46,054 nt of DNA from Escherichia phage vB_EcoS_ACG-M12, in the sequence record NC_019404.1, one strand, 5' to 3'. Below are positions 3,487 to 41,093 of the stretch, piece after piece. The notes under the pieces are model-generated. The model was not told where the DNA came from, made no database searches, and saw nothing but the letters and a program-made list of their open reading frames with translations. Made by a program: the position numbers and the translations under genes. Each line of letters opens with the position of its first letter. Position 1 is the first letter of the stretch.

Positions 3487-3561
3487 GCTCTGTTAGCTTA
3501 ATGGAAAAAGCCGCAGCCTTCTAAGCTGTTGATGGTGGTTCGACTCCACCACGGGGCGCCA
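3487..3561 (+). tRNA. tRNA-Arg(UCU)-like, 75 nt with encoded CCA
   Basis: Hand-folded cloverleaf: acceptor GCTCTGT/ACGGGGC (two G-U pairs), D-stem GCTT/AAGC with GG in the loop, anticodon stem GCAGC/GCTGT with loop CTTCTAA, T-arm GGTGG-TTCGACT-CCACC, discriminator G, CCA. Confidence 0.6.
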
Positions 3562-13124: not shown

Positions 13125-13200
13125 ATAGCACTTTTTGTTAAAGACTAAAAATCAAAATGCTGTATAGTTCAATCATCGAAACGAAATGAGAAATTAAGAA
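13125..13200 (+). promoter_or_regulatory. conserved intergenic cassette (GATAGCACTTTTTGTTAAA ... TGTATAGTT ... CATCGAAACGAAATGAG)
   Basis: Precedes gene 13201. Confidence 0.5.
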
Positions 13201-13467
13201 ATGAATAGTAAGTTAGAAGTATTATCCGCACTTCGCGGCCCTATTTGTGTAGCTGCGCTGGTTGCCTTTTATGCAGCAGTTCAGATTATCAACCCAACAA
13301 GAGCGGAAACAGCAAACTCTGACGCGGCAAAATACAATTCGGTTTTCTCTGAGCACAAGGCAATCTGCGAGAAGGCTTCTGGTAGCAAGATTGATCAGGT
13401 TCTGAAGTATGGCAAGGAAATCTGCGTAGATATCGCGCACGACATTGCAAAAGAAAGCACTAAGTAA
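13201..13467 (+). CDS. hypothetical protein with N-terminal hydrophobic segment (88 aa), moron-like, inside the tail module
   Basis: Own cassette; hydrophobic stretch ICVAALVAFYAAVQII near the N-terminus. Confidence 0.45.
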   Translation: MNSKLEVLSALRGPICVAALVAFYAAVQIINPTRAETANSDAAKYNSVFSEHKAICEKASGSKIDQVLKYGKEICVDIAHDIAKESTK

Positions 13468-18845: not shown

Positions 18846-18911
18846 ATAGCACGAATTGCTAAAGACGATTTAAAAAGATGGGGTATAGTTACCCAATCGA
18901 AACGAGAGGAG
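18845..18911 (+). promoter_or_regulatory. conserved intergenic cassette (AATAGCACGAATTGCTAAA ... GGTATAGTTACC ... CAATCGAAACGAGAGGAG)
   Basis: Box at 18845-18863, TATAGTTAC at 18884-18892. Confidence 0.55.
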
Positions 18912-37985: not shown

Positions 37986-39122
37986 ATGGCAACTGCAAAA
38001 ATTACCAACGAACAGCTTCTTGAAGAGCTGATTAACGGCATGACCAACAAGGCCATTGCAGAGAAGTACGGAATGAACATTCGCAATGTTGAGTTGCGTC
38101 GCAGTAAATTGGCGAAGCAGGGTGAATGGCATGGAAACCCAGGCATCAAGAAGCTAGTTCCTGACGGTTATTTGGTCAAAGGCACATCAACGATGATTGA
38201 TGCCGAAGGTAACGAAAAGCTGCGCTGGGTTAAAACATCCGTAGATAATGAGCGCCTTGAGGTTTTAATGGAGCAAGCCCGAGAAGCATTCTGCTCTGAT
38301 TTGCCAAAGGCTATTCCATCTGAATCACCGAATGTTAACTTTGATGACAACACGCTTGCGATGTATCCAGTCTTTGACTTGCACATTGGAGCAATGGCTC
38401 ACAAACATGAGTGTGGCGAAAACTACGACACAGAAACAGCAGAGAAGGTTATGAATGGTTTCTTTGACTACGCTGTAGATAAGGCTCCGAACTCAAAGAA
38501 TGCCGTGCTTGTTCTTGGTGGTGATTTCTTGCATTACGATTCATTAGAGGCAAAAACACCAGCGTCAGGCCATATCTTAGATTCTGACAGCCGTTACGCA
38601 AAGATTGTTTATGTCGCAATCCGTTCAGTGCGACGTGCAATTTCTAGAATGATGGAAAAGCATCAAGTTATTGATATTAAAGTAATAAGTGGAAACCACG
38701 ACGAGGCAGGGATGGTTTGGCTGCGCGCTGCGCTTGCTGCGTTTTATGAAGATGAACCGCGCGTAAATGTTGATGTTAGCCCAGCCGCAATGATGATGAC
38801 CAGCTTTGGAACTACGCTTATTGGATACACCCACGGGCATCAAATGCGAAAAGCAGATACGCGACTAACTGTTATGGCAACCGATTTTCGTAAGTTATTT
38901 GGTCAAAGTGAGTATGTTTACACACATAGTGGCCACTGGCATTCGCAGAAGATTACAGAAACAAACTTGGGTATTGATGAGGTTCATGGGCAGCTTGGAA
39001 GCCCTGACGCGTACTCAGCAAATGGCGGATGGCGCTCTCAACGTCAAGCGGCGGTTATTGTCTACCATAAAGAATTCGGTGAAGTTGGCCGCTTCATTTG
39101 TCGCCCTAAAATGTTTGGATAA
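37986..39122 (+). CDS. metallophosphoesterase (calcineurin-like) with N-terminal HTH-like domain (378 aa)
   Basis: DLHIG (DxH), GGDFLHYD (GDxxD), GNHDE (GNHD/E), later HGH and GHWH motifs; N-terminal NKAIAEKYGMNIRNVELRR helix-turn-helix-like. Confidence 0.6.
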   Translation: MATAKITNEQLLEELINGMTNKAIAEKYGMNIRNVELRRSKLAKQGEWHGNPGIKKLVPDGYLVKGTSTMIDAEGNEKLRWVKTSVDNERLEVLMEQAREAFCSDLPKAIPSESPNVNFDDNTLAMYPVFDLHIGAMAHKHECGENYDTETAEKVMNGFFDYAVDKAPNSKNAVLVLGGDFLHYDSLEAKTPASGHILDSDSRYAKIVYVAIRSVRRAISRMMEKHQVIDIKVISGNHDEAGMVWLRAALAAFYEDEPRVNVDVSPAAMMMTSFGTTLIGYTHGHQMRKADTRLTVMATDFRKLFGQSEYVYTHSGHWHSQKITETNLGIDEVHGQLGSPDAYSANGGWRSQRQAAVIVYHKEFGEVGRFICRPKMFG

Positions 39123-39193
39123 TAGCACATTTTGTTAAAACAGTAGCCGCGAAAGCGGCTATTATTGTTTTATACAAACGGGAGGGGATTTAA
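39121..39193 (+). promoter_or_regulatory. conserved intergenic cassette (AATAGCACATTTTGTTAAA variant) containing hairpin TAGCCGC-gaaa-GCGGCTA
   Basis: Precedes the HNH gene at 39194. Confidence 0.45.
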
Positions 39194-39688
39194 ATGGATT
39201 GGAATGATTTTCTTGAGTATAGAGATGGCAGGCTTTACTGGACTGACCCGCATTCAACAAAACTCAAGCCAGGTGATGAGGCTGGCAGCAGGCACCATAT
39301 GGGTTATTGGTACATTCGCAGATATGACAAAACAATGTCAAGGCACAGAATCGTATGGGAGATGCACAACGGACCAATACCAGAAGGCATGGAGATAGAT
39401 CATATAAATCACGCCCCTGGTGATGACAGGATTGAAAACCTAAGAATGGTCACAAGAAGGCAAAACAATCAAAACAAGAAATTAGATGGAAGAAATACAA
39501 GCGGACACGTCGGGGTCAGCTTGAACAAGAAGACAAACAAATGGAGAGCAATGATAGGCATAAAGGGAGAGGACGGAAAGAGGAAAACTCTATACGTTTA
39601 CTATGGTGATTCTTTCGATGACGCAGTGTCAGCAAGAAAGAGAGCTGAGGTTGAGTACTCATTTCACGAAAATCACGGAAGAAGCTAG
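39194..39688 (+). CDS. HNH homing endonuclease with AP2-like domain (164 aa), paralogue of gene 17224
   Basis: MDWNDFLEYRDGRLYW ... HRIVWEMHNG ... IDHINH ... RIENLR; clear paralogy with the 17224 protein. Confidence 0.75.
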   Translation: MDWNDFLEYRDGRLYWTDPHSTKLKPGDEAGSRHHMGYWYIRRYDKTMSRHRIVWEMHNGPIPEGMEIDHINHAPGDDRIENLRMVTRRQNNQNKKLDGRNTSGHVGVSLNKKTNKWRAMIGIKGEDGKRKTLYVYYGDSFDDAVSARKRAEVEYSFHENHGRS

Positions 39689-39689
39689 A

Positions 39690-39764
39690 AATAGCACTTT
39701 TTGCCTAAAGCATGCCGTATAAATGCGGCATAATTACCACATCGAAACGAGATGAGGAATTGTA
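39690..39764 (+). promoter_or_regulatory. conserved intergenic cassette (AATAGCACTTTTTGCCTAAA ... GGCATAATTACCACATCGAAACGAG)
   Basis: Precedes gene 39765; contains hairpin ATGCCG...CGGCAT. Confidence 0.5.
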
Positions 39765-40238
39765 ATGATTTACGTATTTGATATCGATGGAACTATAGCT
39801 AATAATGAACATAGAAGTCACCTCTTGCCATACAGTGACCTTCACTTGACTTCAAGTTGGAAGGATTACAATAAAGCCTGTTCTGGAGACTCACCAATAA
39901 TCCCAATGATAAACATGATGAACAAACTTGCGGAATTATGTCAGGTTTACATTATGACCTCCAGAAGTGATGAAGTTGAATGGAGAACACTTGAGTGGCT
40001 TCAGGATAATGAGGTTGAGTATGATTCGATATACATGAGAAGTCGACATGACAACCGAAAAGATTACAAAATAAAAGAGGAATGGCTTAATGAAATCAGT
40101 GGTGGCGATAAAAGCAATGTGGTTATTTTTGAAGATAACCCACAAGTAATTAAGCACCTAAGGAGTTGCGGATACACCGTTATGGCCGTATGTGAATATG
40201 AAGAACTACCTAAAGATTGCGAATCTCACGGAGAATGA
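39765..40238 (+). CDS. HAD-superfamily phosphatase (157 aa), possibly a 3'-phosphatase or nucleotidase
   Basis: N-terminal DxDGT motif (VFDIDGTIA) and a later acidic motif, consistent with a HAD fold. Confidence 0.5.
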   Translation: MIYVFDIDGTIANNEHRSHLLPYSDLHLTSSWKDYNKACSGDSPIIPMINMMNKLAELCQVYIMTSRSDEVEWRTLEWLQDNEVEYDSIYMRSRHDNRKDYKIKEEWLNEISGGDKSNVVIFEDNPQVIKHLRSCGYTVMAVCEYEELPKDCESHGE

Positions 40239-40240
40239 AA

Positions 40241-40795
40241 ATGACTAAATTATTTATCCTTAATGGCCCCGCTGGAGTTGGTAAGGATACTATAGCGGAT
40301 ATCATGGTTGAGACTGGTGTCGCCAAAGAAAAGGTATCATTCAAGTCACCAATGTTTAACGTTGCTAGAGGTATTCTTTCAATAGATGAATTCGATTGGT
40401 TTATTGAAAACTACAACAATCGCGACGAGAAGGAGAAACATCAGAAAATTCTAGGTGGAAAAAGCATTCGAGAGTTCATGATCTGGATTAGCGAGTCTGT
40501 AATGAAGCCAGTCTTTGGTGATGATGTTTTTGGTAAAAGGCTCGCCCAGTCACTTAGTGATGGTTGCTACATTTGCGCTGACGGTGGATTTGCTAGCGAG
40601 ATTAAGCCACTGATCGACGCTGGTGTTGAGGTCACGTTAATCAGATTGCATAGGGCGGGGCACACATTTGATGGCGATAGTCGCTCATACATTCACGGGG
40701 TGTGCGCAAGAGAAATTGATGTTCGTGTTGTTGGTGGTGATATTGATGGAACATCAGCATTGGTAAGGCACGTAATAAATAGCACTAATTGCTAA
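40241..40795 (+). CDS. P-loop kinase, dNMP-kinase-like (184 aa) ending ...NSTNC
   Basis: KLFILNGPAGVGKDTIADIM resembles the T4 gp1 dNMP kinase N-terminus (from memory); ATG directly after the HAD gene stop; C-terminus encoded by the dyad box. Confidence 0.5.
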   Translation: MTKLFILNGPAGVGKDTIADIMVETGVAKEKVSFKSPMFNVARGILSIDEFDWFIENYNNRDEKEKHQKILGGKSIREFMIWISESVMKPVFGDDVFGKRLAQSLSDGCYICADGGFASEIKPLIDAGVEVTLIRLHRAGHTFDGDSRSYIHGVCAREIDVRVVGGDIDGTSALVRHVINSTNC

Positions 40796-40863
40796 AGATA
40801 ATAATAAAAACTGAGTTATCATTAACACATCGAAACGAGATGAAACAAACGAGGAAACACAAG
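40778..40863 (+). promoter_or_regulatory. conserved intergenic cassette (AATAGCACTAATTGCTAAA ... CACATCGAAACGAG)
   Basis: Box forms the last codons of the kinase gene; leader precedes the ATG at 40864. Confidence 0.5.
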
Positions 40864-41040
40864 ATGACTAAAATGATTTATTGCACCAAGAACAACTCCA
40901 AGACGCTTCCATTTACAGTTAACCAGCCGTACAATGCAGAGTATCAGGGTGACGGATATTACAAGATTTACGGAGACGATATGACGTGGATTTTAGCACC
41001 GATTGATGGTTCGCTTGTTGAATTTATTATCGCAGAATAG
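40864..41040 (+). CDS. hypothetical small protein (58 aa) with YQGDGYY motif
   Basis: In-frame ATG after ACGAGGAAACACAAG; paralogous motif with gene 37013. Confidence 0.4.
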   Translation: MTKMIYCTKNNSKTLPFTVNQPYNAEYQGDGYYKIYGDDMTWILAPIDGSLVEFIIAE

Positions 41041-41065: not shown

Positions 41066-41093
41066 TGGGGGCCTTTTGGCTCCCTTTTTTTTG
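41066..41093 (+). terminator. rho-independent terminator
   Basis: Imperfect GC hairpin GGGGGCC...GGCTCCC followed by a T8 run. Confidence 0.55.

Follow-up and report, generated by a model that had tools for sequence, protein, structure and literature searches.

A Pnkp-type phosphatase gene paired with a dNMP kinase gene in phage vB_EcoS_ACG-M12, a probable nucleotide-pool module

The DNA analysed here, a stretch of 46,054 bp that we call the window, is the complete genome of the T1-like Escherichia phage vB_EcoS_ACG-M12 (NC_019404.1; Guelphvirus, Braunvirinae, Drexlerviridae), in which the gene for a haloacid dehalogenase (HAD) phosphatase is directly followed by the gene for a P-loop kinase. 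We find that this pair is probably a nucleotide-pool module of the phage and not a nucleic-acid repair enzyme: the kinase has, as its apparent ortholog, a biochemically proven deoxynucleoside monophosphate (dNMP) kinase, and the phosphatase, despite having the fold of polynucleotide kinase/phosphatase (Pnkp), falls into a clade whose sequence signatures point to free nucleotides as substrate. The features of the pair are as follows (aa, amino acids).

39765 to 40238, plus strand: HAD (DxDxT) phosphatase, 157 aa, ATG at 39765 and TGA at 40236-40238; Pnkp-phosphatase fold, dNMP-kinase-linked clade.
39780 to 39794, plus strand: HAD motif I, D6-I-D8-G-T10, the predicted nucleophile and general acid/base, aligning with T4 Pnkp D165/D167.
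40241 to 40795, plus strand: dNMP kinase (DNK), 184 aa, ATG at 40241, ortholog of Rao1 gp58 (R1DNK).
40265 to 40291, plus strand: P-loop GPAGVGKDT, kinase residues 9-17, in which K15 corresponds to K15 of R1DNK.
40230 to 40240, plus strand: coupling junction, comprising a GGAG Shine-Dalgarno sequence (40230-40233) within the HAD 3' end, the TGA (40236-40238), a 2-nt spacer and the ATG of DNK.

Results

The kinase resembles dNMP kinases and not the kinase domain of Pnkp

An initial annotation of the window had claimed a DxDGT HAD phosphatase translationally coupled to a GxxGxGKDT P-loop kinase, and both motifs were borne out. FDIDGT lies at residues 5-10 of the HAD, whose open reading frame (ORF) at 39765-40238 matches Pfam HAD_PNKP at 62.9 bits (cut-off 27.6), and GPAGVGKDT lies at residues 9-17 of an ORF that extends to 40795 and matches phrog_139 (E = 1.2e-42); neither is a chance ORF. 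The claim of coupling is likewise consistent with the junction, where a 2-nt spacer and a GGAG inside the HAD end make it plausible that the two genes are translationally coupled. The longest ORF for the kinase begins at TTG 40217, which we rejected as its start; because 35 of 35 aligned homologues begin with M-x-K and the GenBank relatives annotate 40241-40795, the start is placed at ATG 40241.

The kinase is 68% identical to Rao1 gp58 over all 184 residues, without gaps and in a syntenic position, and its K15, D16 and T17 are invariant across the 35 homologues. R1DNK efficiently phosphorylates dAMP, dGMP and dCMP, and also dTMP, with minimal activity on dIMP, and its K15A variant is inactive (10.1101/2024.12.20.629578). 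Deletion of dnk from Rao1 moderately lowers dATP at no apparent fitness cost in a competition assay, and R1DNK is the trigger of Kongming, a defence that exploits it to produce dITP (10.1101/2024.12.20.629578). From this 68%-identical ortholog, we infer that the kinase of vB_EcoS_ACG-M12 is a dNMP kinase.

Profile and fold comparisons agree with this assignment. The match to phrog_139 spans profile positions 82-259, and the dNMP kinase T4 gp1 matches the same profile at positions 83-261 (E = 1.8e-65). Searches of the PDB, with the single sequence or with a 35-sequence profile, returned nothing beyond P-loop similarity to AAA+ ATPases and to guanylate or adenylate kinases, and because these matches were uninformative, a fold search was needed; the predicted fold is nearest T4 gp1 and not the kinase domain of T4 Pnkp. 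Alignment of the kinase family to the single T4 gp1 sequence with hhalign covered the first 38 residues and no more. The kinase gave no match to Pfam DNMK (PF21448) at E ≤ 1, compared to 357.9 bits for T4 gp1, and Pfam and NCBIfam scans found no significant family for it; judged by sequence, it represents a subfamily distinct from Pfam DNMK. This family is large: 1,448 phage records contain a member, and 4,134 cluster representatives reach E ≤ 1e-3. The kinase matches neither AAA_33 nor phrog_505, both of which are matched by T4 PseT, and it is related to the Pnkp kinase domain only through the shared P-loop fold.

The phosphatase belongs to a separate clade of the Pnkp phosphatase family

The top structural and profile matches of the HAD are Pnkp phosphatase domains, namely those of T4 Pnkp and of Pnkp1 of an RNA-repair complex, and it scores 77.5 bits on a Pnkp profile. 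The initial annotation had named a sugar-phosphatase assignment as half of what would count against its proposal; for this half, the placement found is Pnkp-type and not sugar-phosphatase. The best PHROG is phrog_415 (E = 5e-53), and homologues occur in 1,679 phage records. When T4 Pnkp numbering is transferred to the HAD through the profile alignment, all catalytic and architectural positions are conserved (T4 residue first, HAD residue second: D165/D6, D167/D8, R176/R17, D187/D42, S211/T65, R213/R67, R246/R92, D254/D100, K258/K104, D277/E123 and D278/D124). The roles of D165, D167, S211, K258 and D278 in T4 Pnkp have been described (PMC3592404). With its catalytic residues conserved, the HAD should therefore be active.

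Two sequence signatures nonetheless separate the DNK-linked HADs from repair-type Pnkp. At the position of T4 R279, 70 of 70 bifunctional Pnkp-like proteins carry Arg, whereas the 77 DNK-adjacent HADs never do (Ser in 74, Asn in two and Leu in one; N125 in the window HAD). The segment equivalent to R176-D187 is 10 residues long in 69 of the 70 Pnkp proteins, compared to 24 residues in 76 of the 77 DNK-linked HADs, in the window HAD and in both of the natural fusions described below. This amounts to a 14-residue insert after motif I, in the place taken by substrate-enclosing caps in HAD enzymes, and in the window HAD the insert is predicted to include a helix (residues 29-41). R279 and R246 are said, in work by Zhu et al. 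from 2007, to bind a sulfate standing in for the penultimate phosphodiester of a polynucleotide substrate, and in the HAD superfamily capless enzymes act on macromolecules and capped ones on small molecules. The loss of R279 together with the insert therefore suggests that the substrate would be a free nucleotide rather than a polynucleotide end, in a clade that appears to derive from the Pnkp 3'-phosphatase lineage.

The phosphatase and kinase genes are linked across phages and fused in some

We then examined gene order in 84 kinase loci (80 from IMG/VR, along with the window, Rao1, TR2 and SU57), which come mostly from T1-like phages and hence are not independent samples. The HAD lies 5' of the kinase on the same strand in 78 of the 84, and in none does it lie downstream or on the opposite strand. 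The genes are directly adjacent in 40 loci and 0.5-2.2 kb apart in the remainder. In two loci that we inspected (L024 3055-3995 and L057 1797-4001) the spacer holds small ORFs of 60-120 aa, and about 35 further Drexlerviridae loci show wide spacing; insertions seem to gather preferentially at this junction. Within Drexlerviridae the pair is accessory, and DTL, IME253 and others lack it. In Rao1, gp57 is a HAD 42% identical to that of the window and lies directly upstream of DNK. A 2026 paper on Drexlerviridae reports "polynucleotide kinase and dNMP kinase" as common after the exonuclease gene and proposes that they extend the replication module for nucleotide supply (PMC13164509).

Two proteins fuse an N-terminal HAD_PNKP domain to this kinase at the C-terminus, one of 403 aa (P0175) found on three contigs, including a 60.7-kb phage-like contig, and one of 461 aa (P0177). 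The Kagunavirus K1H carries an overlapping exonuclease-HAD-DNK cassette (L090 1389-3555) amid tail genes of the other strand; its ORF17, coupled to the HAD and DNK homologues, is 46% identical to the exonuclease encoded upstream of the pair in the window. The T4-like phage RB49 (L089 2344-3977) encodes a stand-alone HAD, 45% identical to that of the window, with an EDNP motif and with DLDFT as motif I, and this gene overlaps the nrdB stop by 4 nt. It sits in the nrdA-nrdB-denA-rnlA-pseT.3 region, which in T4 ends with pseT.

These data bear on whether the HAD is instead a polynucleotide 3'-phosphatase that heals DNA ends together with the upstream exonuclease, clearing 3'-phosphates that would otherwise stall exonuclease, polymerase or recombination while host DNA is broken down or the phage replicates, with the kinase merely a neighbouring dNMP kinase. 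In its favour, a part in DNA metabolism has been described for the T4 3'-phosphatase, the HAD finds its best structural and profile matches in Pnkp phosphatase domains, and it retains all catalytic residues as well as the R246 equivalent. Against it, none of the 77 clade members has R279, the cap-like insert lies at the substrate entrance, the fusions join the phosphatase to DNK and not to the exonuclease, and in RB49 the homologous gene is coupled to one for nucleotide synthesis, nrdB. We consider DNA-end healing unlikely.

The pair is not a split Pnkp for RNA or tRNA repair

Of the two functions offered by the initial annotation, a nucleotide-salvage pair is upheld by the dNMP kinase ortholog, the phrog_139 match and the fold shared with T4 gp1. 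The other was an RNA- or tRNA-repair enzyme split into two polypeptides, with the kinase acting on 5'-OH ends and the HAD on 2',3'-cyclic or 3'-phosphates after attack by an anticodon nuclease. Homology of the HAD to the end-healing domains of T4 Pnkp and Pnkp1 would fit this, as would the presence of a tRNA gene, which the initial annotation had correctly reported, and the names given in public annotations. A 2.5-kb query around the pair shares 99% identity with Escherichia phages vB_EcoS_SCS31 (ON081052) and ECH1 (MN164484), both Guelphvirus (Drexlerviridae, Braunvirinae) with records of 46,054 bp, in which the HAD is a "putative polynucleotide kinase/phosphatase" and the kinase a "hypothetical protein".

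The remaining evidence runs the other way. The kinase is not Pnkp-type, its ortholog being a dNMP kinase and AAA_33 and phrog_505 matches being absent; the HAD itself contains no Pnk-type P-loop 5'-kinase domain (AAA_33 or phrog_505), lacks an R279 equivalent and has gained a cap-like insert; and phosphatase before kinase is opposite to the domain order of Pnkp. The annotation of the collinear ECH1 genome, with 77 features, lists no RNA ligase, and the larger unannotated ORFs encode capsid, cement and tail proteins or DUF proteins and no RNA ligase. The tRNA gene, tRNA-Arg(UCU) at 3487-3561, lies 36 kb from the pair. AGA is the commonest Arg codon over all coding sequences (175 of 655 Arg codons, 27%, or 12.7 per 1000) and accounts for four of the seven Arg codons in the HAD gene. 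AGA is rare in E. coli, and the heavy use of this codon by the phage explains the tRNA; given this and the distance, we rejected a tie between the tRNA gene and the pair. The "polynucleotide kinase" label probably stems from phrog_415, which includes T5 Dmp (see below). We therefore regard repair by a split Pnkp as very improbable. A paper on retron Eco2, considered for its mention of Drexlerviridae and polynucleotide kinase, was set aside, as T4 PNK is used there only as a reagent.

The phosphatase is only weakly linked to T5 Dmp

T5 Dmp is a proven deoxynucleoside 5'-monophosphatase and anti-Kongming factor, and among PHROGs it matches only phrog_415 (E = 3.6e-57). Its similarity to the window HAD is very weak, with BLASTP reporting 30% identity over only 80 aa (E = 9e-5) and hhalign a probability of 70%. 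T5 Dmp scores 14.6 bits on the profile of the DNK-linked HADs versus 4.5 bits on the Pnkp profile, and tblastn with T5 Dmp retrieves T5-like phages only. A fold search of BFVD returned no entry named Dmp among the top 50, and we therefore claim no structural closeness to Dmp. With this weak link, the short BLASTP alignment, the BFVD result and 77.5 bits on the Pnkp profile, the HAD was not filed as a Dmp.

These comparisons expose a naming error. With the name "polynucleotide kinase", phrog_415 mislabels at least one member of established function, T5 Dmp, which has no kinase domain, and this label is the likely source of the annotation of the window HAD. T5-like Dmp genes are often annotated "polynucleotide kinase" as well, among them homologues in T5-like phages of Klebsiella and Vibrio (T5 dmp, L007 124-858; matches H146-H160), and the error is spreading through annotations.

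The HAD could in principle be a Dmp-like anti-defence enzyme that hydrolyses dAMP, other dNMPs or dIMP and thereby stops the phage DNK from feeding immunity that senses nucleotides, Kongming for example. T5 Dmp provides the precedent of an anti-Kongming HAD, Dmp homologues have been reported to co-occur with DNKs, phrog_415 membership and the insert are common to T5 Dmp and the window HAD, and the pair is accessory in Drexlerviridae. However, Rao1, with gp57 upstream of DNK, is fully Kongming-sensitive and is rescued by T5 Dmp in trans. T5 also parts Dmp and DNK in time, whereas the HAD and DNK of the window are apparently co-translated. An anti-defence role is, in our judgement, improbable.

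Genes and sequence elements around the pair

The pair lies between an exonuclease gene and the lysis genes, with these further features.

37986 to 39122, plus strand: metallophosphoesterase-type 'DNA repair exonuclease', upstream of the pair (phrog_704, E = 1e-154).
39142 to 39163, plus strand: terminator-like hairpin from a consensus scan only, upstream of the HNH-HAD-DNK unit.
39194 to 39688, plus strand: HNH endonuclease, between the exonuclease and the HAD (phrog_99, E = 4e-59).
40864 to 41040, plus strand: small conserved ORF of 58 aa (phrog_4788) that would close the unit.
41067 to 41084, plus strand: terminator-like hairpin from a consensus scan only, a GC-rich stem then T8, downstream of the unit.

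The hairpins that bracket HNH, HAD, DNK and the 58-aa ORF suggest that these four genes are transcribed as a small unit of their own, lying between the exonuclease gene and the lysis genes. The 58-aa ORF also lies 3' of DNK in Rao1, TR2 and SU57 and may belong to the same unit as DNK. A 17-mer, ACATCGAAACGAGATGA, occurs in two exact copies, at 39739-39755 (10 nt ahead of the HAD start) and at 40827-40843 (21 nt ahead of the small ORF at 40864), and in degenerate copies with two or three mismatches at 13173-13189 and 18894-18910, just 5' of ORFs at 13201 and 18912. These four matches compare to 0.13 expected, and the 17-mer resembles a leader or translation-initiation element common to these genes.

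The HNH gene, which is AP2-like, is present only in vB_EcoS_ACG-M12 and its two 99% relatives, and the alignments of SU57, UALMA_PCEc3, Msk and others begin only just beyond its end (SU57 from query base 744 onward). It is probably a homing-endonuclease insertion. The protein encoded at 37986-39122 has metallophosphoesterase motifs recognisable by eye (DLH, GDF, GNHD and GHxH) and an N-terminal helix-turn-helix-like segment; neither Pfam (E ≤ 1e-3) nor a sequence search of the PDB gave a match for it. The 'DNA repair exonuclease' of phrog_704 is a core gene in Drexlerviridae.

Discussion

We propose that the HAD and DNK probably serve the nucleotide pool of this T1-like phage and do not repair nucleic acids. 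DNK would convert dAMP, dGMP, dCMP and dTMP to the deoxynucleoside diphosphates with ATP, as shown for its ortholog, and host Ndk would then turn these into deoxynucleoside triphosphates for phage DNA synthesis; the dNMPs would probably come from degraded DNA. The HAD would be an active phosphatase on a nucleotide of the pool used by DNK, as suggested by the two signatures, the fusions and the coupling of its RB49 homologue to nrdB, and its most likely substrate would be a free (deoxy)nucleotide and not the end of a DNA or RNA strand. It may supply 5'-dNMP to DNK, for example from 3',5'-bisphosphates, or alternatively trim or edit the dNMP pool on which DNK draws. Because the two proteins appear to be co-translated and are fused in some phages, they would be expected to act on one pool.

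The fusions would be better explained by a 3'-phosphatase yielding 5'-dNMPs, or by an enzyme selective for non-canonical dNMPs, than by a strong Dmp-like dAMP phosphatase. The latter activity is unlikely because Rao1, which has gp57, builds up dAMP and escapes Kongming only when T5 Dmp is provided, and because it would set up a futile cycle with DNK. More speculatively, the DNK-linked HAD may be a new nucleotide phosphatase that arose from a Pnkp 3'-phosphatase by gain of a cap and loss of the backbone-binding Arg, and that became physically partnered with DNK as a two-enzyme pool editor. Such an editor could convert 3',5'-bisphosphates to 5'-dNMPs for DNK, or it could selectively destroy dIMP or dUMP, keeping the broad DNK from feeding DNA or dITP-sensing immunity. 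We think this scenario unlikely.

Several points weigh against a nucleotide-pool role for the phosphatase. Its proposed substrate is deduced from the two signatures, from the fusions and from the overlap with nrdB in RB49, and the reading of R279 and of the cap follows the work of Zhu et al. and reviews of the HAD superfamily. The HAD retains the R246 equivalent (R92), and T4 Pnkp also dephosphorylates 3'-dNMPs, so a 3'-end activity would be compatible with what is seen. A dNMP kinase would be caught in a futile cycle with any co-expressed 5'-dNMP phosphatase, and Rao1 with its HAD gp57 still accumulates dAMP and is Kongming-sensitive (10.1101/2024.12.20.629578).

The kinase was already known through its ortholog, and the pair and the nucleotide-supply idea were already in the literature at annotation level. 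What we add is the failure of the repair interpretation, the two signatures that contrast with true Pnkp, and the origin of the "polynucleotide kinase" mislabel. The last corrects a widespread error, as hundreds of phage HADs, T5 Dmp homologues included, are labelled "polynucleotide kinase" via the name of phrog_415, and the true neighbouring kinase is often left as "hypothetical" or "ATPase". Kongming hijacks DNK to make dITP, and phages with this pair are thus predicted to be Kongming-sensitive. A partner phosphatase has been kept beside DNK in at least two lineages (T1-like Drexlerviridae and Kagunavirus) and is fused to it in others, and the two signatures pose a clear biochemical question, that of the DNK-linked HAD versus repair-type Pnkp.

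Comparison with known systems

The closest known counterpart of the kinase is Rao1 gp58, which shares the P-loop K15 and a corresponding position after a HAD gene and before a small ORF, holin and endolysin. Rao1 belongs to a different genus, grouping with the Christensenvirus phages TR1-3, and its HAD-DNK gap is 50 bp compared to 2 nt in vB_EcoS_ACG-M12. T4 gp1 (PDB 1DEK; Pfam DNMK, PF21448) has in common with the window kinase the GKDT P-loop and phrog_139, although identity is only 16% and the window kinase is 57 residues shorter. The substrates of T4 gp1 are, per the annotation of the T4 record, dTMP, dGMP and hm-dCMP, whereas R1DNK accepts all four canonical dNMPs.

For the phosphatase, the HAD_PNKP family is common to the window HAD, the phosphatase domain of T4 Pnkp (PseT) and Pnkp1 of the Pnkp1-Rnl-Hen1 complex. 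In contrast to T4 Pnkp, the window HAD stands alone without a Pnk-type kinase domain and is paired with a dNMP kinase, with the phosphatase preceding the kinase in the reverse of the T4 order. T5 Dmp is likewise a HAD with DxDGT followed by HR, and its insert of 23 residues compares to 24 in the window HAD, with the patterns P..(L/W)..Y.N.AC..D and HR..P...Y.N.AC..D in common. However, T5 Dmp is 244 aa long with a C-terminal extension, compared to 157 aa for the window HAD. It is expressed pre-early and separately from the DNK that T5 also encodes, and the HAD homologue of Rao1, gp57, gives no Dmp-like protection.

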